A stretch of 64,000 nt of DNA from an uncultured delta proteobacterium (GTDB taxonomy: Bacteria; Desulfobacterota; Desulfobacteria; Desulfobacterales; JAHEIW01). Each line of letters begins with the position of its first letter. Within the stretch, counting starts at the first letter, position 1. Under the pieces are notes generated by a model, which worked only from the letters and a program-made list of their open reading frames with translations, searched no databases and was not told where the DNA came from. The stretch covers positions 192,001-256,000 of the forward strand of contig CAVPNL010000008.1 of the NCBI GenBank assembly GCA_963706575.1, given 5' to 3'. A program made the position numbers and the translations under genes. Positions 29,892 to 55,166 of this stretch are shown here, in pieces.

Positions 29892-29899
29892 GAAATAGG

Positions 29900-33303: not shown

Positions 33304-33315
33304 GGTTTTCTTGCC

Positions 33316-36300: not shown

Positions 36301-36484
36301 CGGTGTTGGCCAGGACTTCGGCGCTGGCACCCGGATAGGTGGCAGTCACCCTGATCTCCGGTGGGGTGATCTGCGGATACTGGGCGACAGGGATGTTCAG
36401 CAAAGCAATCAGTCCGGCCAGTGTAATGAAAATGGACACGACCGCCGCCAGGCGGGGCCGGTTGATAAAAATCTTTGAAATCAT
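33316..36484 (-). CDS. RND efflux permease (HAE1/AcrB family), split by a frameshift near 34850
   Basis: N-part 34601-36484 (GLVVDDAILVVE) and C-part 33316-34848 (GLAAKNAILIVEF, RFRPVMMTS) are consecutive halves of one AcrB-type protein. Confidence 0.88.
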
Positions 36485-36487
36485 CTT

Positions 36488-37612
36488 TTATTTCTCCTGC
36501 GGCCGGCCGGGATTAATTTGTACCGGCTGGCCGGGCCGGACCTTCTGAATCCCCTCCACGATCACCAGTTCACCCTTGTTCAAACCGGATTCCACCGCCC
36601 ACATGGTGCCGACAGCTTGACCAAGCGAAATGGGGCGGACAGTGGCTATATTTTCTTTGTCAACAACCAGCGTGTAAGGGCCTTGCTGGTTTACCAGGAC
36701 TGCCGACTGGGGTAATACCGGGCGCAGTTTGGGCTGGGTCAATGTGACCAGCACGTTGACATACTGGCCTGGAATCAGTAAACCTTTCGAATTGTCAAAT
36801 TCAGCCCGTATCGCAATGGTGCCGGTGGCGGGATCCATCTCATTGTCTACAAAGTCGATCCGTCCTTGTGTTTCGAGAATAGTGCCGTTGGCTAACCGGA
36901 CTCGCGGAACCAGAGCGGGGCTTCGCCGGCCTTCAACCGCATCGTTCAGAGCCATCTGGATGGCTGCAAAATTATTATCGCTGATGGAGTAGACCACGCG
37001 GATAGGGTCCATCTGAACAATCCGGGCCAGGGGCTTGGATGCCGGGCCGACCAAATTTCCTTGAGTATAGGTGTTGCGCCCAATACGTCCGCTGATAGGC
37101 GCCTTGATGCTGGTGTATCCAAGGTCGAGCAGTGAGCGGTTCAAGTTTGCCTGAGCTATCGCTATTTGGGCCTCGGCGCGGAGTTGAGCGGCAACGGCAT
37201 CGTCAATGTCCGTGGCTGGAATGCTCGCCGACAGGACCGACCGAAGCCGCTTCAAATGCTGATTGGCACGGGTCAGTTCCGCCTCTGCCTGGACCACCTG
37301 CGCTTTATCGATAGCCACTTTGGCCAGATAAGGCGCCTGCTCGATAACGTAAAGCAACTTACCGGCAGGCATATTTTCGCCTTCATTGAAATTGATCTGC
37401 TCCAGAAATCCCTCGACCCGGGCCCTTAAGTCCACGGCCTGAATCGCCTCAACATGACCGATGTATTCAGTCGGAGGATTGATATTCTCAATTGAAACCG
37501 GCGCTACCGTCACCAGAGGGAGCAATTCACGTCCAGAACCTGGTGGAGCTGCGACCGCAACGGACGGAATTATAGGTAAAAGTAAAAGAATCAGAATAGG
37601 TAGAGATCGCAT
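36488..37612 (-). CDS. RND efflux periplasmic adaptor (MFP)
   Basis: Signal peptide, RARVEGFL, IKAPISGRIG, GLLIPGQYV. Confidence 0.92.
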   Translation of the reverse strand: MRSLPILILLLLPIIPSVAVAAPPGSGRELLPLVTVAPVSIENINPPTEYIGHVEAIQAVDLRARVEGFLEQINFNEGENMPAGKLLYVIEQAPYLAKVAIDKAQVVQAEAELTRANQHLKRLRSVLSASIPATDIDDAVAAQLRAEAQIAIAQANLNRSLLDLGYTSIKAPISGRIGRNTYTQGNLVGPASKPLARIVQMDPIRVVYSISDNNFAAIQMALNDAVEGRRSPALVPRVRLANGTILETQGRIDFVDNEMDPATGTIAIRAEFDNSKGLLIPGQYVNVLVTLTQPKLRPVLPQSAVLVNQQGPYTLVVDKENIATVRPISLGQAVGTMWAVESGLNKGELVIVEGIQKVRPGQPVQINPGRPQEK

Positions 37613-38172
37613 TAGATTTGCTCCTCCTGTTCGGCTTGTATGATTTTCTCATCTTCAAAACCCGGTACAATGGGAATTTGGCAAGTTTCAGCACATCTTT
37701 TAAATATTTGTAAAAGTAGGTAAAATAGCACATGAAAATGATTATTTCAATTTATTACATTGCCCGTGCCAATAGGTCAGGTCCTTTTTTAACGGCGGCA
37801 TTTTTGCAAAAAAATCCGGGAGAATGCAACGGCCATTCGTAAAGACGGCAAAAAAATCCGTGTGAGGCCGCTGAAGGCCGCATGTGCAGTTTTTGCTCAA
37901 AAAGGGTACTGAGACACAGCTTAGCTATCGTTCTTTGGAAATACCGAACTCCTGAGGAAATAAAACGTACCGCTGTGCACAGATCGAATAAAGTCTTTGA
38001 ACGATATTATTAAATTGAAAGCTAAGACATGCGAAGTATTTATGAGGAAACGCGAGGGGAGGGCAAAAGCATAAAAACGGTCAGGTCAATTAAATTCTCG
38101 AAGTGACAAAGCTGATAAAGATTTTAGGGGGTGTGGAATATCCATAACCCACTACAATCTTTATATATTTTA

Positions 38173-38229
38173 TGGTGCCGAAGGCCGGAATTGTAAAATT
38201 ATTTATAAAATCAAATAGTTAATAAAATA
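38173..38229 (-). repeat. att copy 2 (core plus truncated arm)
   Basis: tggtgccgaaggccggaattgtaaaatt...aatcaaatagttaataaaat; similarity stops ~20 bp before the stop codon of the next gene. Confidence 0.85.
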
Positions 38230-38251
38230 CCGTGCCCTGAACTCACAACCA

Positions 38252-39322
38252 TCAGTGCATAAAAAGCTCCGGCCTTCGCTCCTTCAAACTCAACATAAAC
38301 TGCTGGCCGTATTGACGGGCGTAGTTAAAATAATGCTCAATCCGATCTTGCGTGGAATCCAAGGGGATTTCACATCCGGATGATAGGATGTATCCGCTGC
38401 CCTCAGCCGCCTTATTAGTGCAATCACGGATGGCGTGCTCCATTTCCTCCCGGGTTCCGGAGCTGAACAGGGACGTTGGCACATTGCCCATCACGATTAA
38501 TTGGGCGGCCGACAGATCAATTAGTTTTTCCAGAGAAGAGGGGGCATCCAGGCTGAGCAAGCTGATTCCGGTTTCGACAATATCGGCCACTATGGGATCA
38601 ATATATCCGCATACATGCAGCGCCATAAGGGCTTTGCGGGAATTGAAATACTGGCAAAGCTCTTGATGATACGGCTTTATGAAATTCCGGTAAATCTCAG
38701 GTGAGATAAGGCTGCAGGAAGCAGCGGCCTCCCCTAGAGATGGTGAAAAGCCGGCTTCGATCAGGGTATCCCCCACCGTTCGAACCACCTCCGTGCTGAA
38801 TTTCATGAGTTCATGGACGAAGGCCGGGTCGTCGTAGGTGTCCATCAGAAGCGACTCGGTCCCCCTGAGGTGCACCGCGATATTCCAGGGGCCGGAATGT
38901 CCCAATCCCATGGTGGCCGTCTTTTTTATCTCCGAGGACACCCTTTGGCATAACTCGATGAAATAGGGTATGCGCCCGTCCCGGGCAGGATTCGGCACCT
39001 TCAGTTTGGCCAGGCGGGATTTTTCCTTCAGCAGAACTGATTTGGGATGCGAAGGACGATCATCAAAAAACTCCAGTTCACATCCGATAGCTTCTGCTTC
39101 CAGGTAGATATCGTTGTAAACGATAAGGCTGTCGGGTTCGAATCGATTGTAAAATGCCAGGTGTGCTTCAGCGCTTTTTTGTGGATCGGTCAGGATTTGC
39201 TTAACGCTATAACCGGTCATTTTACAACAGTAGGGGCCAATTAGTACCGTCGTGGGAATCCGGTCGGCATATTTCCGCTTTAAAGCAGAAAGCACATAAT
39301 ACTTCCCGCTGGTTCTTTCCAT
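38252..39322 (-). CDS. Uroporphyrinogen decarboxylase / MtaA-CmuA methyltransferase family protein
   Basis: EAEAIG, GPWNIA..LRG.E.LL.D, LHVCG, GNVP, YILSSGCEIP. Confidence 0.85.
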   Translation of the reverse strand: MERTSGKYYVLSALKRKYADRIPTTVLIGPYCCKMTGYSVKQILTDPQKSAEAHLAFYNRFEPDSLIVYNDIYLEAEAIGCELEFFDDRPSHPKSVLLKEKSRLAKLKVPNPARDGRIPYFIELCQRVSSEIKKTATMGLGHSGPWNIAVHLRGTESLLMDTYDDPAFVHELMKFSTEVVRTVGDTLIEAGFSPSLGEAAASCSLISPEIYRNFIKPYHQELCQYFNSRKALMALHVCGYIDPIVADIVETGISLLSLDAPSSLEKLIDLSAAQLIVMGNVPTSLFSSGTREEMEHAIRDCTNKAAEGSGYILSSGCEIPLDSTQDRIEHYFNYARQYGQQFMLSLKERRPELFMH

Positions 39323-39448
39323 AACACACCTCCTTTGTTGTTTTAAGGAATAGGGGATCGGGGCATGAATCGTAAATTATGGTGCGACCCGAAGATTACC
39401 GGATTCCAATATAATGTCTTATTGCAGTATAATTCATTTAACAAAAAA

Positions 39449-39473
39449 GGCACTTAGAATCAATCTAAGTGCC
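39449..39473 (-). terminator. Intrinsic terminator following att copy 3
   Basis: ggcacttaga-atcaa-tctaagtgcc preceded by an A6 run (U-tract on minus strand). Confidence 0.7.
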
Positions 39474-39483
39474 CATCAAAATT

Positions 39484-39525
39484 TGGTACCGAAGCCGGGT
39501 TTGCAAAATAAATTATGAAATCAAA
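39484..39525 (-). repeat. att copy 3 (degenerate core, truncated arm)
   Basis: tggtaccgaagccgggt (13/17 identical to the core) then ttgcaaaataaattatgaaatcaaa. Confidence 0.7.
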
Positions 39526-39531
39526 ATTTGC

Positions 39532-39969
39532 TTAGTCGAAAAATTTCAGCGTGTACATGCTTGAATGCCATTCCGGATGTCGCGCTTGATATTCAGCCGG
39601 GCACTTTCCGCTGCCATCGGTTACGTGGATAAGAATATTATCTCCATGTACGGAAAGGGTCCATGGATTTTTGATATGTTCTGTATGCGCTAAAGCCTCC
39701 GGCTTAATGTTAATGTCGTTGTGCGCGGGATTGGAAAAATAATTGGAGACAGCCGCTTTGATGTTCAATGCTTCGGATTCCACACGCCGACAATAGCTTT
39801 CCGGTCGATAGACAGGAATGCTCGGTATAACAATTCCCATAATTATTATTACAACAAAAAACAGCAGCAATATAACAACTAATCTTTTTATGTTTGTTTT
39901 TGGTTTTTCCTTAGTCTGCTCATCCATCACCATGGCCTCTTTGGGGCTTCCTGTTATGCTAGATAACAT
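39532..39969 (-). CDS. Type IV pilin-like protein lacking a canonical prepilin cleavage motif
   Basis: Hydrophobic helix ending IVIP, then YR...ESEALNIKAAVSNYF as in pilin alpha1; real start may be the internal Met. Confidence 0.55.
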   Translation of the reverse strand: MLSSITGSPKEAMVMDEQTKEKPKTNIKRLVVILLLFFVVIIIMGIVIPSIPVYRPESYCRRVESEALNIKAAVSNYFSNPAHNDINIKPEALAHTEHIKNPWTLSVHGDNILIHVTDGSGKCPAEYQARHPEWHSSMYTLKFFD

Positions 39970-40282
39970 TCAACCCCTAAATTGCTTCACAAGCTATATC
40001 GGATTGATTGTCAAATTCCTTTAGAGGAATCAAACTGCCAGAAAGGGAAAGGGGGCGGGTCACGCTATGTTTTTTTGTAAAGTATAAACAGGGTCCATTT
40101 TTATCCTTAAACAGCTATTTTAAGAGTAAAAAATGACCATATAAGAAACAGACAAGCCGCAATCCATTCAGATTGCGGCTTGTTGGTTACAAAATTTTCT
40201 TCGGTCATTCACCAATCATCCATAAGAAAAGGGGCATTAGATGCCCCTTTGGTTATACTGGTAATACCTGCGATAGATCATC

Positions 40283-40567
40283 TTACTCGGCGGTCAGTGA
40301 TGTGATGACTCCCTTGCTATCGCATTCCACGTTGATGGAATCACCTTGTTTCAAATTCTTAAGGCTTTCCATATTTATTTCTGGACCTGCCTTAAGCTTT
40401 TTGACATCACCGGTATCATCCTTTATTGTTAACTCACCAGTAGCGGGATTGAAGAAATCAACTGTTCCGCTTATTTTTTGCATCTCATCGGCGAATACTG
40501 CCGCAACCGCGATAAAAGAGAATACAAAAAATACCATGACTACCATTGATATAGATTTTTTAAACAT
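40283..40567 (-). CDS. Small secreted protein (OB-fold-like)
   Basis: AAGGAG RBS before ATG at 40567; signal peptide ending AVFA; beta-rich mature region; hairpin aaaaggggca/tgcccctttt downstream. Confidence 0.7.
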   Translation of the reverse strand: MFKKSISMVVMVFFVFSFIAVAAVFADEMQKISGTVDFFNPATGELTIKDDTGDVKKLKAGPEINMESLKNLKQGDSINVECDSKGVITSLTAE

Positions 40568-40719
40568 TTTTAACTCCTTAGGGTTTTTAATGAATTCTGT
40601 TTGTTTTAATTCGCTTATCCGTGACAATCTACTATGGATCAATTCTTCGTTTCTCCTTAATTCACACCTCCTTTTTTCGTAGTTGGGCTTTCAATTCCTA
40701 GCCTACGTTTTATTCTCTG

Positions 40720-40735
40720 TGCAATCGGCATACCA
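40720..40735 (-). promoter_or_regulatory. Sigma-54 (-24/-12) promoter
   Basis: Minus strand TGGTATGCCGATTGCA fits GG-N10-GC; TGTGTA-N10-TACACA palindrome at 40808-40829 upstream. Confidence 0.6.
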
Positions 40736-41180
40736 AAATCATCAGTTTCAATATCCAACTGATATTTAAAGATTTATTTTTGCTGGTACAGTTTTAAGCA
40801 TTTTATCTGTGTATGATTTACCTTACACAAGTAAAAAGGAAAGAGAATGAATTAAAGTTGTAACTAACCGAGTATTCTTTGTTTAATAAACATTTAAGGA
40901 TCTTTTTTACGGGGATACAAAATCATACTCACATCAAGCACTGCGGAGGATATTTTAAGGATAGGCGTTTTGTAGTTTCAAGATTTAGGAGGAAAAGCCT
41001 TAGCCAGCTTAAGCCGGAAAACGACAATTCATTTTCAAGGTATCTGGCATCAGTCGCGCGTTAAAGGGGTTGGACTTAAAACTGAAGGTTAGCTGGTGTG
41101 TGAAAGCGTTTACCGACTATCGCACATAATGCAAATGCGACTTCAGCAAGACACTGAAATCATTCTTGATATTATTTAGA

Positions 41181-41310
41181 TGGTGCCGAAGGCCGGAATT
41201 CAAAATTATAAATAATATCAAATAGTTAATAAAATAAATGATAGTTTAAGCGATATTAAGCCGGTTTTTGTACAGTCCTGGCTGCATATTGGCATATCAA
41301 TTGCGTATGA
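41181..41310 (-). repeat. att copy 4: tRNA-Leu 3' end plus conserved arm
   Basis: tggtgccgaaggccgga; tatcaaatagtta at 41216-41228; ttttgtacagtcctggctgcatattggcatatcaattgc. Confidence 0.9.
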
Positions 41311-41576
41311 ATCCAATATCCCTTAAAACGCCCATTTTACCTCTAAAACGCCCATTTTACCTCCCCAATGCTAGTTCTAAGCCAAAAAACTTTTTAATTG
41401 GAAATTTTTATGAATTATCAGATAGTTACTGCGGTCCAACCCCTTATTTATCTCAAAATAGCATTCATTAATTTGAAAATATCGGCGATACTTGGTATAT
41501 ATTATTAGGTAGCGCGTTTTCGATCTTGCGATGGAATTGAGCCTTGCGCACCAATACGATCCAGTTTTGCTGAGAG

Positions 41577-42938
41577 ATGGTTTTCAATTTTTCTTTATCA
41601 AACAAGATAGTTTATATACCCCCGTGCCGACCTAGTGAGCTGTCACCCTTGTCCAACAGGCTTCATCTCATAATTCTATTGATATTCATTTTATCTTTCC
41701 ATGGCTGTGCTGATATGAGAGAAGTTGTTAAATCTCTGCCGCTTCATATCCACCCAGAGGAAAAGATCGAACGAAATGATTTTTTTGTTGCCAAAGAAGA
41801 TGACGTCATTGGCCGGTTGGCGGCCATCAGACTTCAAAAGGGGGATACGCTGCCGGATATTGCGAGACACTTCAGTCTGGGAATCAATACAGTCAGTGCA
41901 GCTAATCCGGGGGTAGATATATGGGTGCCTGAGGCCGGAAGGCGCATCCTGTTGCCGCTGAGTTTTATCCTGCCAGACACCCGCAGAAAAGGTATCGTGA
42001 TCAACTTAGCCGCCATGAGGCTCTTTTATTTTAGAAAAGATGGTAAACTATTGGTCGTGTCGACCTACCCGGTCGGTATCGGTACCACAGAGCAGCCCAC
42101 CCCCATGGGCCGAATGTATATAACGCGCAAGAAGTTGCGGCCGACCTGGTATGTGCCCGCCGTGATTGCTGAAGATCATCGGAAAAAGGGAGATCCTCTA
42201 CCGGCGAATGTACCACCGGGGCCTCTAAATCCTCTGGGAGAATACGCTCTCTATTTAAGCAAATCAGGCTATTTGGTCCATGGTACGAATAAACCGGCCA
42301 GTATCGGTCTCAGGGCAACCTATGGCTGCATAAGACTCTATCCGGAAGATATAAAGAGACTTTTCAAAAACACCCCGGTAAAAACACCTGTTCGCATTGT
42401 TAATCAGCCATATCTAGTCGGCCAGCGTGATGGAATAATTTACATAGAAGCGCATCGGCCCGTTGAACAATCAGGCACCGCTGAGTTGAAGAAGGCATAT
42501 GCAAAATTGAGAAATATTGAAAAGAAGTCAGGGCACGCGCTTGACTGGAAAAAGGTTGGGAAAGTAGTGGGGGAGGCCCGCGGGTTCCCAGTTCCCATAT
42601 TCGAGATCAATCAAGGAAGTGAAAAGGTTGTTGCGGAAACCATAAAGCTCTGGCATCCGCGCAAGTTGTATGGCAAACCGGAAATACCGGAACTCAAAAC
42701 GGACGCGTGGTATGTTCTGGCTGCTACTTTGCGTGACAAGGTTGACGCTCTGAGGCTTGCGGCAATTATTAATCATCAGGGTCCACAAATTCCCGCAAGG
42801 GTGTTGTCAACGAGCGATCGCTACCGTGTTCTCGCCGGTCCTTTCAATAATATGAGCGAGGCCAAAGATGCGGCAAAACGTTTGAAAATTGATTTGGAAA
42901 TAGACGGTATACTGGTTGAACCGATAAAGGAGAGTTAG
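41577..42938 (+). CDS. L,D-transpeptidase (LysM + YkuD + SPOR)
   Basis: GDTLPDIARHF LysM, YLVHGTN...ATYGCIRL catalytic His/Cys, C-terminal YRVLAGPF SPOR domain. Confidence 0.9.
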   Translation: MVFNFSLSNKIVYIPPCRPSELSPLSNRLHLIILLIFILSFHGCADMREVVKSLPLHIHPEEKIERNDFFVAKEDDVIGRLAAIRLQKGDTLPDIARHFSLGINTVSAANPGVDIWVPEAGRRILLPLSFILPDTRRKGIVINLAAMRLFYFRKDGKLLVVSTYPVGIGTTEQPTPMGRMYITRKKLRPTWYVPAVIAEDHRKKGDPLPANVPPGPLNPLGEYALYLSKSGYLVHGTNKPASIGLRATYGCIRLYPEDIKRLFKNTPVKTPVRIVNQPYLVGQRDGIIYIEAHRPVEQSGTAELKKAYAKLRNIEKKSGHALDWKKVGKVVGEARGFPVPIFEINQGSEKVVAETIKLWHPRKLYGKPEIPELKTDAWYVLAATLRDKVDALRLAAIINHQGPQIPARVLSTSDRYRVLAGPFNNMSEAKDAAKRLKIDLEIDGILVEPIKES

Positions 42939-43169
42939 CGAATTGCGCCCTTTTTTTCACGTTCAAGCCGTTGAAGTTATTTAAATATCTCTATCCAGAG
43001 CCTGAGCCGACCCTGCATTGAGAATTCAGGCAATGGTTGTACTTTAACTCCAAAAGAGGTACATTTTTTGCAGTAAGTAAATAACCAACGTGGATATTTT
43101 TGTGAAGTAACACGGAATTTTTCAGTCGTTGTTATGGAAAGGTAAACTGAACAGAAAGGAGGTGACGAC

Positions 43170-43517
43170 ATGATGAAGAAGAGCCATTTGGTGATCTCAA
43201 TAATGCTTGCTCTCGCTATTGCCGTAGGGGGTTGCGCCACAAAAGGTGACCTCGAGGAGGTGCAGGCCCGGGAAAAGGCGATTGGCGCTAAAGCTGATCA
43301 GGCGGCCCAGGATGCCGAGGCTGCCAAGGCATCAGCCGATGAGGCTGTGAGGAAAGCAAATGAAGCAATGGACCGCGCCGAGGAAGCTGAAAGGAGGGCA
43401 GAGGAAAGAGAGAGAATCGCAGCTGAAAAGGAGAGAATCGCAGAGGAAAAGGCGAGAATCGCAGAGGAAAAAGCAAAACAAGCTGAAGCTGCTTTTCAGA
43501 AATCAATGAAGAAGTAA
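43170..43517 (+). CDS. Lpp/OprI-like alanine-zipper lipoprotein
   Basis: Lipobox VGGC, Ala-rich coiled coil, C-terminal KSMKK; AGGAGG RBS. Confidence 0.8.
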   Translation: MMKKSHLVISIMLALAIAVGGCATKGDLEEVQAREKAIGAKADQAAQDAEAAKASADEAVRKANEAMDRAEEAERRAEERERIAAEKERIAEEKARIAEEKAKQAEAAFQKSMKK

Positions 43518-43635
43518 ATCAAAAGGAAGTGGCAGGGTTTGAGCCCCCCACTTCCTTCTATTTTCACCCTTTAGCATGATACGTATTGCAGATATATATG
43601 GAAGAGGTCCAGTTTGCGATTATCAGGCACATTGT

Positions 43636-43781
43636 TAGAATCCATCTCAAAATTAGGATTTTGGTTCAAGATCGCGGCGGGGTCTAGTTTAAAACCGGAG
43701 GCATACTGTTGTATGTTGAGGATTTTAAACGAGGCGCCAACAAAGATATTGGGCCAAAAGACATTTTTGAGATGGGTTCTA
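43636..43781. repeat. ~146 bp palindromic MITE/REP-like element
   Basis: Terminal inverted repeats tagaatccatctcaaaa / ttttgagatgggttcta, TA at both ends; internal motif shared with 5672-5814. Confidence 0.75.
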
Positions 43782-43799
43782 ACAAGCACAAACACTTAT

Positions 43800-44758
43800 A
43801 CGGGTTTAAGGCAGAGAAGGGAAGGCGTTTATCTTCGCCTTTTCTTCGTCTGCATCATCATAACACCATTTTTTATATTCGGATGCGGTGGGGGACACCA
43901 GGCCAGATCTCTCACCAAGGAAGCAAATGATTTTTTCAACCAGGGAAAATACCAGGCTTCTCTAAGCAAATACGAGCAAATTATTGAGAAAAGTCCAGCA
44001 GTAGCGGACAGAGTTCTCTTTGAGATGGGTATTATTTATGCCCATCCCAGGAACGAACAAAAAGACTATCAAAAGTCTCTCAATTGTTTTCAGAAAATCG
44101 TTAGGGATTACCCGGATAGTAAATTCAGACAGGATAGCCAGATGATGATACTTCAAATCCATAATGTCATCATCAAGAATAAAAAAATTGCTACGCAGCA
44201 AACACAGATTGAGACTTCCCGGCAGGAGGTTAAAGCCAAAGAGAACGAGATTATCACACTGCAAGAGATGATTGAAACGCTCGAATATAAAGATTGAATC
44301 GCTTGAACATAGAGATTTTTGCACTCCGGACGGAACCGGCAGATAAAGTTCTGATAGAAAAGAAAGAGCGACGATTGACGTTGCTCTCAAAGGGCGAGGT
44401 GATCAAAGCGTACAAAATAGCCCTGGGGGGCGACCCGATTGGCCCGAAAGAAAGGCAGGGCGATAACAAAACCCCGGAGGGAACCTACATAATCGATTCA
44501 AGAAACAACAACAGCGAATATCACCTGTCTCTTCATATTTCCTATCCTAACGAGAAAGACAAAATGCGAGCAAAAGAACTTGGTGTTTCTCCGGGCGGAA
44601 ACATAATGATCCATGGCATCAAAAATGGTCTCGCGTGGGTGGGTGCATCTCATGCAAAGTTTGACTGGACAAAAGGGTGTATTGCGGTTACAGACGAAGA
44701 GATGCAGGAAATCTACAGGCTGGTGCCAAATGGTACGATTGTTGAGATAAGGCCCTAG
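43800..44758 (+). CDS. TPR lipoprotein fused to an L,D-transpeptidase (YkuD) domain, split by a frameshift near 44290; start uncertain
   Basis: Lipobox IFGC, TPR and coiled coil in ORF 43614-44297; GDNKTPEG, IMIHG, WTKGCIAV in overlapping ORF 44294-44758. Confidence 0.7.
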
Positions 44759-44802
44759 AAAAATCGCACAACTTATCGTTAGACCAAATCGCTCTGATAA
44801 AA

Positions 44803-44837
44803 AAAAACGGATTCAGCCGTTTGCTGAATCCGTTTTT
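44803..44837 (-). terminator. Intrinsic terminator following att copy 5
   Basis: aaaaacggattcagc-cgttt-gctgaatccgttttt. Confidence 0.8.
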
Positions 44838-44850
44838 CATTATTTGCAAA

Positions 44851-44982
44851 TGGTGCCGAAGGCCGGAATTGAAAAATTAATAATGATATCAAATAGTTAA
44901 TAAAATCAATAGCTAGTTTAAGCGACATTAAGCTAGTTTTTGTACAGTCCTGGCTGCATATTCGCATATGAAATGCATATCA
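44851..44982 (-). repeat. att copy 5: tRNA-Leu 3' end plus conserved arm
   Basis: tggtgccgaaggccggaattgaa (22/23 to tRNA); tatcaaatagtta 44887-44899; agctagttt x2; gcatat x3. Confidence 0.92.
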
Positions 44983-45004
44983 TTTCCGACTCTTTCGTAT
45001 CGAG

Positions 45005-45313
45005 TTAAACAATCGCTTTTGCGATACCTTCTTTGTTAGCTCCCATGGCCAGCAAAGATTTGACAAGCAGATCCACAGATACGCTCGGATCTCCCTTCTC
45101 CATCTTGGCGACCCTTGATTGACTGGATTTCAGCATTTTGGCTAACTGTGCTTGCGTCAAATTGCTTTTTTTGCGGCGTTTTGCCAAAGCTTCGCTGAGC
45201 GCCAGTTTTAGCTCTATGTATTCCGATTCTTCAGTACTCAGTCCAAGAAACTCTTCAACAGTTCCGACTTTATAGCCTTTAGATTCTAAAACTTTCTTTT
45301 TTTTCGTATCCAT
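45005..45313 (-). CDS. XRE-family HTH protein (HigA-like antitoxin)
   Basis: LTQAQLAKMLKSSQSRVAKMEKG helix-turn-helix. Confidence 0.85.
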   Translation of the reverse strand: MDTKKKKVLESKGYKVGTVEEFLGLSTEESEYIELKLALSEALAKRRKKSNLTQAQLAKMLKSSQSRVAKMEKGDPSVSVDLLVKSLLAMGANKEGIAKAIV

Positions 45314-45314
45314 T

Positions 45315-45737
45315 TTATTTTTTCCCTTCTAGGGTACTCTTGCTGGGCGTTATCGCATTTTGAGCAGCATGAACCAGGAAAGAAGATCGAGACATACCTC
45401 GTTTTCTTGCAATTGTATCGATTTTACGAAGCATATCTTCCGGGACAGTGATATTCACGCGAATGGATCGAGGTTTTGCGTCGGATACAGAAACAATGAG
45501 GATCGCGGCGGCATCAGCATAATCCGGATCGTCCATGATATCTTCAAGCTTTGAGGGAGTCGGTATATTTTCACCGTCTTCCATCATCCCCTTGATGTGT
45601 AGAGAAAGAGCATCATGAGCCATATCCTTGGCTTCATCAATGGAGCTGCCGGCGGTAATACATCCCGGAAAGTCAGGAAAAGATACACCGAAATCACTTT
45701 TGGGATCTTTATGGACCACGGCAATATAATTAGCCAT
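45315..45737 (-). CDS. hicB: HicB antitoxin
   Basis: FGVSFPDFPGCITAG N-domain, C-terminal RHH (RVNITVP...SRSSFL). Confidence 0.92.
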   Translation of the reverse strand: MANYIAVVHKDPKSDFGVSFPDFPGCITAGSSIDEAKDMAHDALSLHIKGMMEDGENIPTPSKLEDIMDDPDYADAAAILIVSVSDAKPRSIRVNITVPEDMLRKIDTIARKRGMSRSSFLVHAAQNAITPSKSTLEGKK

Positions 45738-45746
45738 TTTGCCCTC

Positions 45747-45935
45747 CTATTTGAACTGAATACCTGATTGGCGTTCAATACTTTTCAAAGTGCCAACAGG
45801 TATGTCTTTGTTAGGATGCGGAACTGTAACCCGTCCCTTTTTTGATGGATGTTTAAACTGAATGTGTGAACCGGATTGATCGACCTTATACCAGCCATCC
45901 TTTTGCAGAATTTTGATGATCACCCGGCTATCCAT
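45747..45935 (-). CDS. hicA: HicA toxin
   Basis: GWY...GSHIQFKHP...VTVPHP.KDIPVGTLKSI. Confidence 0.92.
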   Translation of the reverse strand: MDSRVIIKILQKDGWYKVDQSGSHIQFKHPSKKGRVTVPHPNKDIPVGTLKSIERQSGIQFK

Positions 45936-46091
45936 GTGTGTATTTATACACACTAAATAGATTTGTGTCAAATATTATTTAATTCTAAGATAACAACGGC
46001 ATGAAAATGGGCGGGCAAGCTCCGTGACGTGTCGACCAATAAAAAGTGGGCCACAAATAATTTGCAACCCACTTAAAATATTATAAAAAAA

Positions 46092-46220
46092 TGGTGCCGA
46101 AGGCCGGAATTGTAAAATTTATAATTATATCAAATAGTTAATAAAATCAAAGCTAGTTTAAGCGACATTAAGCTAGTTTTTGTACTGTCCTGGCTGCCTA
46201 TTCGCATATCAATTGCATAT
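46092..46220 (-). repeat. att copy 6: tRNA-Leu 3' end plus conserved arm
   Basis: tggtgccgaaggccgga; tatcaaatagtta 46128-46140; agctagtttaagcgacattaagctagtttttgtac. Confidence 0.92.
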
Positions 46221-46964
46221 TTTTATGCTGATAAAAACTTTAATTTTAATTGATCCAACCAGTTTTTCCTAATTTTCTATAATTACATCATAGCACCATT
46301 TCTAATATAACTTCGGTTTTGAATTAAAGCGCATTTTTCCGAGTATTCCCCTTCATTATAAAGGTTTCATAATCAATTTATTGAAAATAAGCACATTGAT
46401 CTTTGATTTAGGTAGGCATTTAGCTAATGAAATCTATTTCATTAATTAGATATATATTATAAAAAATAATTTTGTCTCATTATAACGTTCTGTTTTTTAT
46501 ATAAGTTTCTTATTTTTTTCTTGACACTTGAAATCGCATTTCTATATAGAAGTATTGATAAATAGAAAATCGCCGAATTTGAACCATCCCCCCATTTTCT
46601 GACACTTAGGAGGTAAGAATGCTTTAACGCATCTAAAACTCCATTCATAGTTAGGGAATGGGGTTTTTTGTTTTTGAATGATTTTTTAATTATATTCAGA
46701 GATCTCATTCCTAATTCTTTTCTTTCTATCGCGCTAGATTCGCATTGTAGTATTTGTATCAAACCATTTGATTAGTTTATTCCGAATTTTTGCCGCTATC
46801 TGAGAGCTAGATTCTGATTTTCTCAAATATAAAGATCAAGATTTGTTCTTAATATACATAATCGGAAAGCCATAGCGTTTCTTGTTAAGGATTTTATAAA
46901 ATTTAAATTTTGCAGAGATAACGGAAATTCCATACTCATCCCAGACAGTATTTCCACAAACAAA

Positions 46965-47025
46965 GCATAACCTCTGCATGCACAAGACGCTTGTTTTCTC
47001 GCCTCTGTGATGTAGGGCGATAGGC
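46965..47025 (+). other. Degenerate integron attC-like site
   Basis: GCATAAC ... GATAGGC ends; ctctgcatGcac pairs imperfectly with gtgatgtaggg leaving an unpaired G; 22 bp upstream of the next start codon. Confidence 0.5.
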
Positions 47026-47047
47026 ATTATGAATCGGAGGGGACGTC

Positions 47048-50000
47048 ATGAAAGTTTTTAAAATTACAGGCAAGGTTGTCAGCAGTGATACAAAGGAAGG
47101 TATCAAGGGCTTTAGGGTAGAAGCCTGGGACAAAGATTTACTTGTGAATGACATGGTCGGCAGTGCCATTTCGGGTGACGGTGGGGTCTTTAGAATCCAA
47201 TTTGATAAGTCCTATTTTGAAGAGCTTTTCCTTGACCGCAGGCCCGATCTATTTTTCAAGGTGTTCAAAGGGTCCAGGCTTATCAAGAGTACTGAAGATT
47301 CAGTGATCTGGAATGTGGAGAGGGCGGACATTGAACAGGCTATTGAAGTAGAGGAGGTAAGCGACATGGCTACATCAACCAACAAAGCCGTCTTTGTTAG
47401 GCAGCGAGGAAGTGAAGTATTCAAATTTGTTACCTTGCGACCCTTCCAAAGACAGGATGAAACCACAGTCGAGAAAAGAAAGGTTTTGTGTTACAAACCG
47501 ATTGATGAAGAAAAATCGGAGTTTCATCAGGCGCTATTACATGCCAAAGAACACCTGCCTGAAGGGTCTGGCCCAAGGGAAGCCATGGTGGCTAAGGCCA
47601 AGGAATTTATCGAAACCGATGGGTCCACTTTTGTCCGAAACATTCATGACTTATCGAATCCACAAGCGCCCCGCTCCTCTCAATATACTGGTTATAAATC
47701 GTCTCTGGGCCTATTGGAAGAGTGGATCTTTAGGGGAAAAAATCCGATTTTACACGAAGACCTGCTGTCGGAAATTAAGAACGTATATAAAAAAGATAAC
47801 ATTAATGACATTGTGCAAAGCCCTGAGTTTCAGACAGACATATACAGGCTTCAAGACAGCATCATGGCTCTAGCCATCGTTCCATCCTATGTTCATAGTC
47901 AGCGGGATCGTCTGGTCAATGCCTTACGTATATGCAGAATCATCGAGAGGATGATCGAAAGTGACCCAGGACTGATGCAATCCTACGGTATTGACAAGGC
48001 TATGAAAGCCCCTGTGGTTTTACCCACGGATGTTTTTCCATTGCCACCTGCCAAATTATTAGAAGTCGAAGCCCCTACCGATCAAAATGGGGAACAGGAA
48101 GAAGAATTCGGACAACTGAGTGAAAAACGCATCGCTCTGAGGACAGCCATTGAGGAATTGGCTCATCTGAGACCTAACGATTACCTTCCGCCGTCACCAG
48201 CTACTGAGGAACCTCTTATCTCAAAATTAAAAAAGGAAGATATCAAAAAATTGAGCAACTCCACCAAGGCAGTCCTCAAAGAGCTCAGCATTGACCTGAC
48301 AAAAGAGACCATTCCTGAGGTGCTGGGTATACTCGAGGTAGAAATTGGTACGGCAGAAGAGGCAAAAGCATCTGAGCTTCAGTTGGTCGTGGAAGAATTC
48401 TTAGAACTTTCCTCTCCGCCTTTTCCGCCACTGGCTGAAAAGGAAATTGCAGCTGCTGTAGAGGAGTGGAAACCCTGGATGCTTAAGCAAGAAGCGATTG
48501 ACCAGCTTTGTGATACAACCAAGCAGGTCATACAGGGGCTTGGCTTTGACCTCAGCAGGGATCCGGTTCCCGTTGTGATGAATGCCCTTGAGAAAGAGCT
48601 TGTCAGTGTAGGGGCACAACTATACATACCGCCCAGGCGGAAAAGAATGATCCGCCACGGCACAAGTAGGTTGGAGTTCTTGCCGGGGCTCGAAGTTTTC
48701 TCCGCGGTCGCCAGAGGAACTTGAGCCGATTCGAGTGCCTCAGACTAAGGGTCTTGTTGTGCCTATAGGATTTGGTGAATATAACAGCGTTCGGCAGACC
48801 CTTTTGATGTATGAACCGGGCGAGATCGCTCATATTGAAAACGTTCTCAGGGGAGAACACAAGGAGCGGGTCCACCGGCGTCTTCGCCGTCTTGAAGAGG
48901 AGGTGACCTACGAGGAGGAGCGCAAGGCTGTTACAGAAAAAGACCTGCAGAGTACAGACAGATTCGAGCTTAAGCGGGAAGCATCCGAGACCATCAAGGA
49001 AGAGCACAAGGCAGAGGCAGGCGTTACCGTTAAATATGATGGCCCTTCTGTCGATGTCGAGGCAAAAGCAGGCTATACTTACACCCATGCTAAAGAACAG
49101 GCTAAGAAAACCTCGGTCTGCTATGCAAAGAATGTCACCGAACGCTCCCTGAGCCGACTGGAAGAGAAGGTCCGCGAGGTCAGGGTAGAAAAAACCATCG
49201 AGGAGTTTGAGGAGACCAATACTCATGGCATAGACAACAAAGACAAGCCCGACCATGCCGTTGGTATCTATCGCTGGGTGGACAAAATCTATGAGGCACA
49301 GGTCATCAACTACGGCCAGCGTCTGTTTTCGATTTCGTCGTTCCCGAGCCTGCCGCATTTTATCTCTACTCACTGACCCATGGTGCGACAACAGACCTGG
49401 AAGAACCTGTACCGCCGATGGTCGATGAAAATGGTGAACCATGTGAGGAGGATAATCCCAATGCGAGGTCATTAAGGCCTGATGATATTTTGCCAGATAA
49501 TTACATGATATGGATTGCGCAGTATGAGGTATCAGGTGCTAAGCCGCCGCCAACATTTGAAATAGTGAAAGGTCATTCTTTTTCAAAAGCACCGGAAAAG
49601 ACTGGCGAGGATGATAAGGAAGAAAAAGAAAAGTACCTGTTAAGCAATGAAACAATTCCAATTCCAAAAGGCTATCGACCATACTTTATTTCTGTCGATT
49701 TGTCGCATCCACGGTTTTTGGATACTTATTTAAGTATAGCGGGTGACAATAGCAAACCTAGTATTGACCATAACGAACCCAATATCCCTGTTCTGTATGA
49801 AGACAAAAACTACCATGGTAGAAGATTCCCGCTTCGAGAGTTAAGCATATTTCATCTGGGCGATTATCATTTTGATAATAAGAGTTTCTTCCATTAAAGT
49901 CCCTCCAGGCTGGGCGGTATTTGCAACCCAGCATCACAACTTTGGAGGAAGCCGATGGTACATCACAAGGAATGTTAATCATAATGAATTAAAGGCATTG

Positions 50001-51106
50001 AAGTTACACGACAATATCACTGGTGTGGAAGTTTATCCTCCAGCGGATTTTTATAAAAAGTACACAGGCCTCGGCCACTTAAACTATACAGGAGAGGATG
50101 GAGATCAAACTGGAATTCCAATTTCAGTTGCAATCAAAAGGTCTGACGGCTCTGTGATGAATGTGAATCTATGCTGTCGCAGGACTGATATGCATATGAA
50201 TGAATGGCAGCTCGAGACCTACGACGCCATCATGCAGGCCTATCAGAACAAAAAGGCTGTATACGAGGAAAAGTTGGCGATGGCGGCGATTCAAGAGGTA
50301 TCAGCATGTCAGCCGGAGTCCGGAGCAGAGCGCGAGATTGAAGAGATAGAACTAAAACGGTGGGCTCTTTCCATGATCACAGGGCAATACTTTGAAATCT
50401 TCAATGCCATGCAGACCGACCGCCAGGGGTATCCGGGCATCAACTTTGCCGAGGCAGAAGCGGAAGGCTCCTATATCCAGTTCTTCGAGCAGGTTTCGCA
50501 GGGCCCCTTATGACCTACCTCTTCTATCCCTATTTCTGGGGGAAGAGAAAGGCAACCTGGGAGGGGGTCACCTGGATCGACAAAATAACAGGCATCCAGG
50601 ATGTGGATCCGCTATTTGAAAAGTTCCTTAAGGCAGGCGCCGTCCGAGTCACAGTACCGGTGCGTCCTGGTTTTGAGGAAGCGATTCAGAATTACGTTTC
50701 TACAGGACAAATCTGGAACGGCGATGAGAAGCCCACGCTTGATGACCCCTTGTATGTCTCCATTGTGGAAGAGATTCAGCAACAGCAGGGCGCATACGTT
50801 GAAAAGTCCGAGGGAACGATATCTGTGGAGCTTGGCAATGCACAAGTTGTCGGCGCAGGAACAAATTTTGAAGAAAACGATGTTGACCGCGAGATCTACA
50901 TCGAAGGCAAGCGCTATGTCATCGCTGAGATTCAGGACGCAGCGCATCTCAACCTGACTGAACCCTACCGTGGTGAGACCAAACAGTATGCGCGTTATTA
51001 CATCGGTGCAAGACTGGTCGGTGGACCATGGGAAGTCAGGGTTCCCACCTCATTGGTATATCTACAGGAGGACGCCACCCTTCCCGACTTTAATGAAGAA
51101 GGGTAA
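47048..51106 (+). CDS. Large uncharacterised protein (~1350 aa if joined) broken into five consecutive ORFs
   Basis: ORFs 47048-48724, 48735-49376, 49418-49897, 49872-50513, 50510-51106 alternate between two frames; N-terminal beta-sandwich-like VEAWDKD domain. Confidence 0.6.
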
Positions 51107-51111
51107 ATGTT

Positions 51112-52437
51112 ATGGGTTCCGTTCGCTTTGTAGATATACTATATGAAGCAAAAGATGGACTTCCGCAGCTTTTCGAGCTTGATCCCTCGATCTATGGGCG
51201 CACGCCATCAAATCTCCTTGATGAGGCTATCCGATTCTATAATTATCCTGCAGCAGGGCTCTATGCAACTGCAACTGCCTGGCAGGTTTTTCGTAATGAC
51301 CATGTCAACAAAGCCATCCTATTACTCCACGATGTCTTGAAGGAAGGTATCGTCACAATGGTTGGCAATCTTTATAAGGACATACTAGGGCATCTGGATA
51401 AGAAAAAGTGCGGAAATGTGGGTGGGTATCATAGTGAGCTTGGCTCCATGTGTGCCGAGCTCTTGGTCTCGCCTAAATGTCGAAGTCAGGAAAAGTTAAA
51501 GATGCTCGAAAGAAGCCCGAACTTAGTGCATTTCAGGGAGTTTGAGAGACTAATGGAAAGCCTTGGGCTCTTAAGAACATGGGGGGAAAGAATAGAGAAC
51601 ATTTATCAAGAGCGTTATTCAAACCTAATTGGAGGATCTGAATCTGAAATAAGACAGGCATTGTTTGAGCCCGCATGGGGTGGTTCATGGATTGTAAAGC
51701 CCAATGAATATCTTTGGAAAACCCGAGACAGGATTTGGAATCCAGAAAACCCTATTTGGCCGTATGCTCCGGGTAATGTTGGTCCAACTGAAAAATTGTA
51801 TTTTTCCCTATTGTCGGGTGTTTTTAAACGACAGCATAATATTCCTTTTTCACAGTCAAGAAATCATTTCGGCCAAACAAAGGACCCTTTTTTGCAGAGA
51901 GTGTATCAGCAATCCAAAACAATTAAGCAAATTATGCCGTCCTATGAGCCGAAAAACAAAAGAATAATTGTATGGAATCTTGGAAGAGAAATCTTGAGCA
52001 CCTCGCTTATATCTTTGAAAAAGCAATATCTGAAGTCAAACACGAGCCTGGGTAGAAGAAAAGAAGAAGAATGGACTTCTTGGATAAAAAGAAATGGTTG
52101 CGGTGTTAGGGTGGGTCTTCCTGCGGCATTGGGTTTGATTGGTATTCTCTATGCCTATATCACCGATCTTCAGGCACGAACCCTGATGGCAGCCCTCTCC
52201 AGTGCAATTATTGATATCTATGAGAAAATCAATGGTTACACCGCAGTGGGTTTGTGTGAGGCTTTGAGCAGGAAAGGTGCCATCGCAACTGTTGGAGACC
52301 AAACGGTGCTTGAGAAAGAGCTAGTCGGCATTCTGAGGCAGTGGCGAACCTTTCCCGCCGCAGAGGTTCAAGAGCTGAACCCTTGGGGAGATGCAAAGGT
52401 AGATAAATCGGTTAGAGAATGCTTAAGCAGCTTCTAA
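51112..52437 (+). CDS. Hypothetical protein
   Basis: 441 aa ORF starting 5 bp after the preceding stop; no motif recognised. Confidence 0.6.
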   Translation: MGSVRFVDILYEAKDGLPQLFELDPSIYGRTPSNLLDEAIRFYNYPAAGLYATATAWQVFRNDHVNKAILLLHDVLKEGIVTMVGNLYKDILGHLDKKKCGNVGGYHSELGSMCAELLVSPKCRSQEKLKMLERSPNLVHFREFERLMESLGLLRTWGERIENIYQERYSNLIGGSESEIRQALFEPAWGGSWIVKPNEYLWKTRDRIWNPENPIWPYAPGNVGPTEKLYFSLLSGVFKRQHNIPFSQSRNHFGQTKDPFLQRVYQQSKTIKQIMPSYEPKNKRIIVWNLGREILSTSLISLKKQYLKSNTSLGRRKEEEWTSWIKRNGCGVRVGLPAALGLIGILYAYITDLQARTLMAALSSAIIDIYEKINGYTAVGLCEALSRKGAIATVGDQTVLEKELVGILRQWRTFPAAEVQELNPWGDAKVDKSVRECLSSF

Positions 52438-53370
52438 AAAGGCCTCTAATATCTGAGGATAGATGGGAAAAAACTCGATCTTTTAGAAAACAAAAGAGAG
52501 AAATCAGAGAATGTGTGAGTTTTGAGGATTTCCACCGAAACTATATCCCAAGATTTCCGATTATAACAAAAGGATTTTTCGATAATGTTCCTTTACCGAA
52601 AGAGCAGATTCATGGAGAAGATTTTGAGATTGACAAGTGGTATGCTGACGAGAAATTGTATGGAGCAACATTTGAATCCCAGGTTCATGTATTTATCGCG
52701 TTTCAATTTTTAGAAAGATCGAAAAAAATCTTAAAATGGAATTGGGAAAGCAAAAAGTACCGGTTTAAAGAAGACAAAAAGGTGCTAAAGAAAAAAAGAC
52801 ACCCATGTTTCTTTATTACGGCAGGGTTTTTTGTCTTTGGCGGAAGAAAGCGCCCGCATCTTACCCATCGTCATGGAATGACAGATTCAATAACTATTGC
52901 TGTTCTAGAAGCTGCCTATGAAGCAGAAAAGGTGGCATCTGACCATTATGTTGGTTATTCCCGAAAAGCTGTTGAAGAAAGATATCCGAATATTGCCTAT
53001 CTTTTTAGCGCATATGCGGTTTCTGAAAAAATTCATGCAAAGAACTACAAAAGGATACTTGCCTCATTGAACGCAGGGTTTGAAGAGCCTGAATTTAATA
53101 TTTTTATATTAGACACTAAAGCAAATTTAATGAGTGCTTCAGAGGGTGAACTGAAAAGATGAAGGAAACCTATCCAGATTTCCTTGCGAAACTAAAAAAT
53201 GAATCGCATGACGAAGCTATTATCAATTGTATGTATTCTTAGAAATTCGATCGGCAACATAAACGGAAAATCAACGAAGTTCGGAATTATTCAAAATGGT
53301 TTTTTGGTTCAGTGGCAAAAAAAATTGAGGGAATGAAATTTGACTTTCATGTATGTGAGATTTGTGGATC
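52419..53370 (+). pseudogene. Hypothetical N-terminus joined to a decayed rubrerythrin/ferritin-like gene
   Basis: LEAAYEAE...Y..KAVEE.YPNIAYLF.A...SEKIHA diiron motifs; continues through stops/frameshifts to HVCEICGS and is cut off at ~53370. Confidence 0.6.
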
Positions 53371-53371
53371 T

Positions 53372-54841
53372 AAACAAATCCCGGTTTCATAGAGGAGCAA
53401 CTGGTGCCCGGCAGTTTGGAGTTTGCCATTCGATATGCTCATTGAGACGCGCATGGACATGTCGGTATTTGAGGGCAACTACAAAAATGACGAGACAGGC
53501 CGCAGTGCCTATGATCCTAAGATTTTGTTAAAAGTGGTATTGTTGGCTTACGCGCGGGGGCTGATATCCTCGCGGCAAATTGAAAGGGCCTGCTGTGAGA
53601 ACGTGACCTTTATGGCGCTGTCTGGCAACCAGCGGCCCGATCACAGTACCATTGCAACTTTTGTATCTTCGATGAAAGATCAGATATTGCCTTTGTTTTG
53701 CGACATTTTATTGGTCTGTGAGCAAGAAAACCTATTGGGCGGGACCTTTTTTGCCTTAGACGGGGTAAAGCTACCGGCTAACGCGTCCAAGGAGTGCAGC
53801 GGCACGATAGCAGAACTAAAAAAGAAAAAGGACAAAATACAACAAAAAGTCAAGCGCCTATTAAAAGATCAGATTGATGCGGATAAAGATGACGATGATG
53901 ATTTTCGCACTCCACCCAAAGTCGAGCAGCAAATTGAGAAGCTTAACAAGCAAGCCGATCGCATTGAAAAATGGCTCAAAAAAAATAATGCCAAGATCAG
54001 CTCAAATGGCAGAGAGCTCAAAAGCAATCTAACCGATAATGACTCGGCGTTAATGCTCACCTCCGGCGGCACCATCCAGGGCTACAATGGCCAGGCGCTG
54101 GTGGATGACAAGCACCAGATTATCGTTCATGGACAAGCCTTTGGCAGCGGACAGGATGCCAAACATCTTGATCCCATGGTTGATGGGGCTAAAGCCAATC
54201 TGGAAAAAATCGGTCAGAGTGCAGATTATTTTAAAGGCAAGATTTTAACTGCTGATACCAATTACCATAATCAAAGCAATTTAAAAAAGTGCCACGATGA
54301 ACAGCTTGATGCATATATACCGGATTTAAAATTTCGCAACCGCGATTCACGATTTGCTACCCGGCCAAGGAATAAACCCAAGAAGGGTAAAAAATTTGTA
54401 TTAGAAGATTTTAAGCACAACAAAGCTGCCGATCACTATATTTGTCCCAATGGTAAGGTGCTCAAGCTAAACGTAAAGCGCCACACCACAGATCACAATA
54501 TCTACCGCCGCTATATGGCCGATGAAGCCGATTGCAGCCGCTGTTCATTAACGCATCGATGTTTTTATCGCAAAAATACAAAACGTCGTTCACTGGATGT
54601 TCCCATCGGTGCAGCAAACACCAATTTTTCCAAAGCCATGCAGCACAAAGTTGATAGTGAGAAGGGACGCAAAATATATCCACAGCGCTTTGCCATTGTG
54701 GAGCCGGTTTTTGCCAATATTAAAACCCAAAAGCGCTTGAATCGATTTACGCTAAGAGGCAAGGTCAAAGCTAACATCCAATGGATGCTCTATTGCATGG
54801 TGCATAATATCGAAAAGATCATGAACTTTGCCACGGCATAA
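53372..54841 (+). mobile_element. IS1182-family transposase, 5'-truncated
   Basis: AYDPKILLK, SSRQIE, PDHSTI, LDGVKL, TDNDS, GYNGQ, VEPVFANIK; upstream residues IPVS..EEQLVPGSLEF are out of frame and the extreme N-terminus appears missing. Confidence 0.85.
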
Positions 54842-55114
54842 GCGGGATTATCAGCTCCAGGGCATACAAGCGGCATAATAAAACTTACCAGCAGCCCAAA
54901 ATACGACTTTAGAAATGTTTGAAGTTTGGCGCAACAGATGGATGTTTAAAAACAACTTATTCAACAACTTCCCAACATATCAGCACTTTTGAACTCCGAA
55001 AAAACCTGTGATACTTGTTTTATATCACAAATTATAGAGGCCTTAGACATTATCCCCACGATGTCTTGTCTCCAGTCTCACACAAGTGTTGACCATATCG
55101 TTGACCAAGCCAAA

Positions 55115-55145
55115 AGAAAAGCCCTTTTTAGATAAGGGCTTTTCT
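55115..55145 (-). terminator. Terminator downstream of tRNA-Leu
   Basis: agaaaagccctt-tttagat-aagggcttttct. Confidence 0.8.
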
Positions 55146-55166
55146 CATAACATATTGATATTATTA

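Follow-up and report, generated by a model that had tools for sequence, protein, structure and literature searches.

An attR-side arm, very probably of one tyrosine integrase clade, closes integrase-less tandem units behind tRNA-Leu(GAG) in an uncultured Desulfobacterales genome

In this work, we analyzed a stretch of 64,000 nucleotides (the window) from an uncultured delta proteobacterium of the Desulfobacterales, in which a repeat unit of approximately 135 bp, made up of a 17-bp displaced tRNA 3' end and an arm, recurs behind a tRNA-Leu(GAG) gene. As judged from its sequence, this repeat is very probably the attR-side arm of a clade of tyrosine integrases, here called clade A. The array as a whole is best read as a product of tandem accretion, its cassettes being CIME-like and probably mobilised in cis by visitors for which this arm alone suffices. 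Similar tandem arrays are already known; most of the units described here differ from CIMEs by their non-cognate left ends.

The integration target, tRNA-Leu(GAG) (55167..55253, minus strand; ARAGORN), is the sole tRNA in the window and lies 3' of secG (55287-55688). An earlier note on this DNA had listed four full copies of the repeat, at 29900, 41181, 44851 and 46092, and all four were confirmed, on the minus strand: the most distal junction (29900..30035), the most worn of the full copies, which closes unit K3 (41181..41314), the junction that closes K2 (copy from 44851, core 44851..44867), and a junction formed by the arm plus the 17-bp displaced tRNA 3' end (46092..46224). Their arms, of 115 bp each, are 82-91% identical in pairwise comparisons, and a genome-wide profile search (5.67 Mb) returned them with E values of 1e-31 to 1e-33, the next match having an E value of 4.5, which places the repeat at a single locus. 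That list was incomplete, as a wider profile added two further minus-strand copies: a cut-down junction at 38173..38229, with a perfect core and IHF site and the remaining arm gone, and a degenerate one at 39484..39536, with a worn core and part of the IHF site (E 0.0035 genome-wide). Since these two copies were found together with orphan left ends near 40170 and 28150, identified by comparison with relatives, the array holds at least six junctions over approximately 27 kb. All copies lie behind tRNA-Leu(GAG) in the same orientation, each abutting a displaced tRNA end; a co-oriented 3' fragment of the tRNA is thus present downstream of the intact gene as the 17-bp core at five places and as one worn copy. 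The core (44851..44867, minus strand) reproduces the 3'-terminal 17 bases of tRNA-Leu(GAG), CCA included, and starts with the final base of the T-loop. The earlier statement that identity to the tRNA stops in the T-loop holds across 59 homologous junctions, in which position -17 matches in 58 of 59 and position -18 in 22%; the stretch of exact identity is 17 bp long, with its limit at the final base of the T-loop.

The copy at 44851 served as reference for the anatomy of the arm. An exact IHF-consensus site, TATCAAATAGTTA, is located 19 bp from the core (44887..44899, plus strand), and it is followed by three positions phased at 10 bp (44910..44939, minus strand), with AGCTAGTTT at 44911 and 44931, 20 bp apart, by a conserved TGTACAGTCCTGG block (44941..44953, plus strand), and by three ATATGC direct repeats (44955..44980, minus strand; GCATAT at 44956, 44964 and 44975). 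For the site calls we took the IHF consensus to be the one given in the earlier note. The ATATGC repeats are predicted to be arm-type integrase sites. The 10-bp repeats are predicted excisionase sites by analogy with lambda attR, where three Xis sites stand in helical phase between the IHF and arm sites (PMC7145599, PMC4880445). Sequence inspection therewith places an IHF site and helically phased accessory sites between the core and the putative arm sites. The order of motifs given in the earlier note (core, IHF site at about 20 bp, AGCTAGTTT pair, TGTACAGTCCTGG, up to three GCATAT) was correct, as was the TATTAAATAGTTA variant of the IHF site in the 29900 copy, but the copy with diverged AGCTAGTTT is that at 41181 and not that at 46092, in which TGTACTGTCC is present and only two exact GCATAT are found. 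The IHF consensus is not enriched above chance over the window, with eight sites found versus 4.2 expected and seven of 100 shuffles reaching eight; five of the eight fall at junctions. The genome contains ten HU/IHF-family protein matches, among which IHF is not distinguished from HU.

Spacing and conservation were analyzed in the 59 homologous junctions, which are non-redundant. In 51 of them, 49 nt separate the IHF site from the CCA end; for the middle arm site, scored in 55, this distance is 117 nt in 44 and 107 nt in five. Six of the 59 lack exactly one 10-bp unit of the phased block, which in one subfamily consists of three tandem 10-bp repeats. Conservation reaches 0.79-0.96 in the motif blocks versus 0.68-0.70 in the spacers, the core and the IHF site having been part of the search pattern.

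A pattern scan retrieved 72 metagenome loci, in several of which an integrase gene, or a C-terminal stub of one, converges on the tRNA end or core. When the full-length integrase of locus L057 was used as query, 38 of 301 genomes of the order gave matches at E 1e-30, and nine of 301 at 49-68% identity. In eight of these nine close relatives the 3' end of the integrase gene adjoins tRNA-Leu (seven GAG, one CAG), and nine proteins of this kind form a single branch, clade A, with a support of 100/100 in a 27-protein tree in which five loci were not included. In clade-A elements, the sequence directly behind the tRNA comprises a hairpin that contains an IHF-like site and, at about +52 and +62, two ATATGC-type repeats, a pair with the same motif as the three copies in the window arm. 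We compared the left arms of 30 junctions that an integrase follows: the A motif occurs in 12 of 15 clade-A cases versus none of 15 others, and at least two GGKTGCR in none of 15 versus 13 of 15, a contrast that is strong as anatomy and weak as statistics because the motifs were picked after inspection and the comparison is effectively a single phylogenetic one. Two far ends of the sister clade B carry GGTGC repeats instead. Of the genomes in which a clade-A integrase lies at tRNA-Leu, four contain the arm as well, on other contigs, and in five it was not seen.

The integrase family is large (311 matches at E 1e-60), and its members are named in the source only as "integrase" or similar. The catalytic R, K, H, R, H, Y columns are conserved in the family, and structure prediction gives a separate beta-sheet/helix domain at the N terminus, joined by a flexible linker and placed ahead of the core domain. 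The top folds are the Tn1549 and lambda integrases; the alignment of the whole protein to full-length lambda Int covers 388 columns with a high rmsd, and an AP2 match is weak (E 0.077) and restricted to one homologue. In the L057 element the integrase is accompanied by excisionase-like, AEP-primase and coupling-protein-like (ATPase) genes, and no relaxase was found in the examined parts of the elements. The parent elements look like integrative elements rather than phage. A phage origin was rejected, with no pattern matches in viral contigs and a best viral-contig protein match of 31%, and so was a plasmid origin, all 403 plasmid records having less than 60% identity and the best ten 24-28%.

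No clade-A integrase was detected in this genome by Pfam, tblastn or a 98-sequence clade profile, its ten tyrosine-recombinase matches all being distant from clade A, and neither integrase nor stub was found between 24001 and 56000 of the window. The 25 genomes of the family, many of them incomplete, likewise yielded none (best full-length match 32%, one fragment 40%), nor did the near-complete genomes G090 and G176, though both hold arm-ended units. Most of the genomes compared are fragmented MAGs, prone to losing mobile elements, and no locus was found in them with a full clade-A element followed by its own arm and then by arm-ended units on one stretch.

The conservation of the repeat is one-sided. 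Across the core, the 115 nt are 47-55% identical among the four window copies, versus 82-91% for the arms, and the level in shuffled sequences is 51%. The sequence on that side derives from several element families, so that each junction would hold one arm, on the attR side, in a chimeric context and not a whole attP. This qualifies the earlier view of the repeat as a conserved recombination arm of attP-like anatomy for one cognate integrase: the cognate arm is well supported by the clade found in relatives with the same motif on its other arm, by the fixed spacing, by deletions of whole helical turns and by the lack of conserved RNA structure, and the whole attP is not.

For the left ends, we examined 36 arm-ended units, namely 31 kept of 40 intervals with a usable left boundary and the arm on the right, plus five from better-assembled genomes. 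They have a median length of 3.1 kb and none contains a whole integrase. Eleven of their left ends are of clade A, four of clade B and 21 of other types, which makes 25 of 36 non-cognate; the count behind the excess of clade-A far ends is biased, because the sample was selected on the arm and the far ends of other families were undercounted. Five of the 36 units keep C-terminal parts of an integrase, and in three of these a clade-B part is fused to a clade-A arm. Other far-end types do exist in the compared loci. Within the window, where no selection on the arm was applied, all six junctions match the clade-A profile, and one of the four scored units, K3, has a clade-A-like left end. A right end composed of an HTH gene plus the arm occurs with four different left ends.

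The first unit behind the tRNA, K1 (46230..55166, 8.9 kb), begins with a left end (55085..55166, minus strand) that carries an IHF-consensus site (55148-55160), a terminator-like hairpin and two TGGTCAAC repeats, and is not of the ATATGC (clade A) type. K1 contains an IS1182 transposase gene, a rubrerythrin-domain gene and an operon of proteins without family match, and no integrase. Its seven-gene operon (47048-53162) has no family match in Pfam or PADLOC except for a C-terminal rubrerythrin domain and is a candidate defence or stress module. A short ORF region just inside the arm (46418-46731), without family match, is also present in at least seven other loci and is likely the retained end of one parent element. 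K2 (44990..46091, 1.1 kb) encodes HicA (45747-45971), HicB (45315-45737) and an orphan HTH antitoxin-like protein (45005-45313); the Gp49-like toxin that accompanies the latter in L043 and L091 has been lost here, and the gene now stands beside hicAB. K3 (41316..44850, 3.5 kb) comprises two L,D-transpeptidases, a lipoprotein and a TPR protein, and carries a MITE-like insertion of about 150 bp with terminal inverted repeats (43632-43785), whose family is common in the genus and has 31 copies of at least 120 nt in this genome. Two fused small units follow (39537..41180), where an orphan left-end hairpin near 40150-40192 marks the trace of a lost junction, and then a unit with a URO-D-family gene (38232..39483). 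K5 (30035..38172, 8.1 kb, 53% GC) holds RND efflux genes and an AI-2E transporter; its AcrB-family gene (33316-36484) lies in two overlapping frames and is therefore probably broken or an assembly error. The last unit (28110..29899), likely older, contains a class-III aminotransferase gene beside an orphan left-end hairpin at about 28110-28207, and an aminotransferase-III gene is also found between two arms in L034. No transfer genes were detected among the scanned window ORFs, several K1 proteins having no family match. Elsewhere, AbiEi/AbiEii genes are a recurrent cargo close to the arm or immediately inside it, in several families (L042, L044, L055, L075, L181), with a TOTE primase-helicase at three of these loci. 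The window also contains intergenic inverted-repeat elements (16536-16708, 56485-56616, 5672-5814 and 24225-24399), two of them with short heptamer-like tandem repeats in their arms.

The arm was found in 16 of 22 genomes of the genus, in 13 of them at E below 1e-10, and in 20 of 151 genomes of the order. A genome from another family, with core genes about 70% identical, carries an arm of 95% identity. The near-complete genome G090 has two arm-ended units behind tRNA-Leu(GAG) and, in a tRNA-Phe array, an arm with a Phe-type core; in G029 there are two arm-ended units behind tRNA-Leu(CAG). At Leu(CAG) and Phe, the core of the arm follows the sequence of the local tRNA. A clade-A junction of Leu(GAG) type was found inside a tRNA-Phe array in G244 (L323:15908-16333, G244:C17), where, together with a short clade-A left arm, it amounts in effect to a whole attP-like site. 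At L057:6552-9783, the side of a full clade-A element that faces the tRNA is occupied by integrase-less units, an arrangement opposite to that usual for CIMEs; the tRNA itself lies outside the stretch examined, and the cargo of the units is a PD-(D/E)XK nuclease and a nucleotidyltransferase pair, with GmrSD further on. The genome studied here has two more tandem arrays, at tRNA-Phe(GAA) (C8:150901-160830) and tRNA-Arg(TCG) (C18:105116-112287), each with two displaced half-tRNA copies (anticodon-loop crossover) and the latter with a partial tyrosine recombinase, as well as tRNA-Pyl(CUA) and tRNA-Sec calls (C15:118432-118505 and C3:141925-142022).

The history of K3 gives some insight into the fate of resident arms. 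K3 is present in 11 of the 22 genus genomes; it is the third unit in the window and stands directly behind the tRNA in G004, and across eight orthologues it is joined, right at the core, to six different distal left ends. These precise junction swaps could have been produced by an integrase or by homologous recombination. The four-fold divergence of K3 is 0.28 versus 0.46 for three core genes, and lower in 54 of 55 pairs; since the K3 tree is broadly congruent with the core-gene tree, the unit may be old and mostly inherited, and a recent horizontal sweep is for the same reason only partly supported. Among five orthologues, the identity of the K3 arm is 66-85%, which is close to that of four-fold sites; the arm is mostly deleted in two more, and no arm was found beside K3 in three further genomes, which argues that resident arms decay; clear purifying selection on them is not shown by these sequence comparisons. 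In the earlier note the arm had been described as kept intact despite differing cargo. This agrees with the 82-91% identity of the four full arms and does not extend to the two cut-down or worn window copies, nor to the orthologous K3 arms, diverged at about the four-fold rate or lost in congeners. Homogenisation of the arms within the genome is not favoured, because three of the four match another genome more closely. Several observations are in favour of movement: the 95% identical arm in another family, the intact most distal arm, and the Leu-type junction in the Phe array of G244. A search for excision in public sequencing runs, which came from relatives only (word sharing at most 0.26), gave no credible core-to-core joint and is no evidence either way.

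What is observed, then, is the anatomy of the arm, its fixed spacing, the displaced tRNA ends, the motif shared with clade-A left arms, the absence of an integrase here and the mixed left ends. On this basis, we propose that clade-A visitors pick up and deliver integrase-less units by using the distal arm alone, a chain of events to which, taken as a whole, we would give an even chance. The integrase would bind the ATATGC sites, IHF its consensus site and the excisionase the 10-bp repeats; the element would integrate at the tRNA, in front of the array, and would sometimes excise with a more distal arm, carrying the intervening units with it. In a new host, it would excise with its own arm or lose its integrase by deletion, and the units would stay. 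Because only the distal arm would be needed, the left ends would be free to differ. Against this mechanism, core-to-core deletions could equally result from homologous recombination between the repeats. It is tempting to go further and speculate on a one-armed cassette system of the Desulfobacterales, in which the distal arm and the end shared by tRNA-Leu(GAG), Leu(CAG) or Phe would be enough for a transient integrase clade to gather units of whatever left end, to move them and to insert them at the tRNA and at internal cores; in this general form we consider the idea rather unlikely.

The strong rival is that the arms are dead attR scars. Clade-A elements would simply be the commonest visitors, deletions would fuse later left ends to older cargo, homologous recombination would trim the array, and the arms would not be reused. 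This is a serious possibility, if not a probable one: orthologous K3 arms decay at a nearly neutral rate or are lost, the window holds cut-down, worn and lost junctions, the K3 tree roughly follows the core tree, and the C-terminal stubs in five of the 36 units, three of them clade B on a clade-A arm, indicate that such deletions occur; tandems of SXT/R391 elements also delete and form hybrids by recombination (PMC5812530). The scar reading leaves unexplained, however, why other families, with left ends that are common, have so few far ends; preservation follows no simple age gradient, since the most distal junction (29900) ranks with the best preserved, and the lower four-fold divergence of K3 relative to the core genes suggests some spread after the species split. 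A minor rival, which we judge improbable, holds that single units are excised and re-inserted in trans by a clade-A integrase that tolerates foreign left ends, as in an integron without a resident integrase. The small size of the units, the many neighbours of K3 at the core, the integrase-less units on the tRNA-facing side of the full L057 element and the layout shared by clade A and B left arms (an IHF-like site within a hairpin and a pair of repeats at about +52 and +62) would all suit it. However, lambda excision requires cognate arm sites in attL (PMC4880445), and 25 of the 36 left ends have no clade-A profile; furthermore, no reversal of unit order between genomes was found, and the host genome is without a clade-A integrase.

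The two remaining explanations would deny the repeat a role in recombination, and the earlier note had named both as findings that would count against a recombination arm. One is that each unit repeats a structured non-coding RNA or a transcription-control element. One copy does fold moderately (plus strand, z -2.18), but the other five folds have z values of -1.28 to +1.04, RNAalifold gave 0 pairs in 59 copies (tRNA strand only), so that no conserved pairing supports an RNA role, no Rfam match was found at the repeat, and its indels are whole helical turns; we therefore hold this explanation to be highly improbable. The other is a MITE or a different dispersed repeat unrelated to tRNA integration. 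Even though the genome does have a MITE-like family, with one copy inside K3, the arm occupies a single locus in 5.67 Mb, always abuts the tRNA end in one orientation, has no reported inverted ends, and changes its core with the local tRNA at Leu(CAG) and Phe. This distribution largely refutes independent dispersal, which is barely credible here.

If the arm-dependent movement in cis proposed above is true, it would explain the continued build-up of integrase-less islands at tRNA genes and show which att half matters for their capture. It would also provide a testable list of parts (an integrase clade, a target, a predicted arm, IHF and excisionase sites) for sulfate reducers, for which few genetic tools exist, and a 135-bp marker delimiting defence and metabolic cassettes missed by integrase-based island finders. 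Should the one-armed system exist, it would represent an integron-like gene reservoir without a resident recombinase. If the arms are only scars, the array is still a clean, but ordinary, record of tandem accretion.

Our literature search, which covered few subscription papers, retrieved no description of tRNA-Leu islands or a secG-tRNA-Leu hotspot, nor of integrase-less cassette arrays, in Desulfobacterales or Deltaproteobacteria, and a 2026 preprint on genomic islands mentions tandems only in passing (10.64898/2026.01.13.699239). The closest known systems include some in which islands accumulate at one RNA gene. The Islander/TIGER tDNA islands of the T-loop/junction class share with the present units a displaced 3' tRNA fragment that marks the island end and a crossover in the T-stem region, and the Islander report counts four tandems of three or more among 3919 islands; as its tandem calls require an integrase in each member, Islander would miss units such as these (PMC4383910). 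In Dehalococcoides, many tandem islands lie behind the single ssrA gene, also with T-loop crossover and extra conserved bases beside the repeat, and 15 of them are without integration module (PMC3146451). That system relies on a serine recombinase, a tmRNA and a 15-bp motif, whereas here a tyrosine integrase, tRNA-Leu/Phe and a 115-bp arm are concerned.

As to the arm itself, the lambda system differs in that its sequence is unrelated, and here the target is a tRNA and three predicted arm sites are clustered on this side. In the lambda P arm, P1 and P2 are separated by a second IHF site. The likeness to lambda attR and the P arm (PMC7145599, PMC4880445) lies in the succession of core, IHF site, three helically phased sites and arm-type sites and in an integrase with an extra N-terminal domain, the sites and the domain being predicted in our case. 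Integrons resemble the array in outcome, since in both small units with adaptive and defence functions are lined up with a polarity at a single site. They differ from it in that intI, attI and attC are lacking here (there is no tyrosine recombinase in the window and no conserved pairing), the sites would be double-stranded and lambda-type, and the units are multi-gene and lie in either orientation.

A close parallel is with CIMEs and site-specific accretion, as known from the ICESt1/ICESt3 family and from the tRNA-Lys islands of S. agalactiae, where integrase-less units with att sites stand in tandem at a single target, internal junctions are chimeric and incoming elements mobilise the units in cis (PMC5704250, PMC7563491); mobilisation is proposed in our case. 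The absence of integrase and transfer genes that defines a CIME is also seen among the scanned ORFs of the window. By definition, a CIME retains its own attL and attR, and in this respect the two part, 25 of 36 units having a non-cognate left end. The tandems of S. salivarius comprise two to three elements, that adjoining the target being an ICE or IME, whereas the array described here has at least six junctions and no integrase, in a host of a different phylum.
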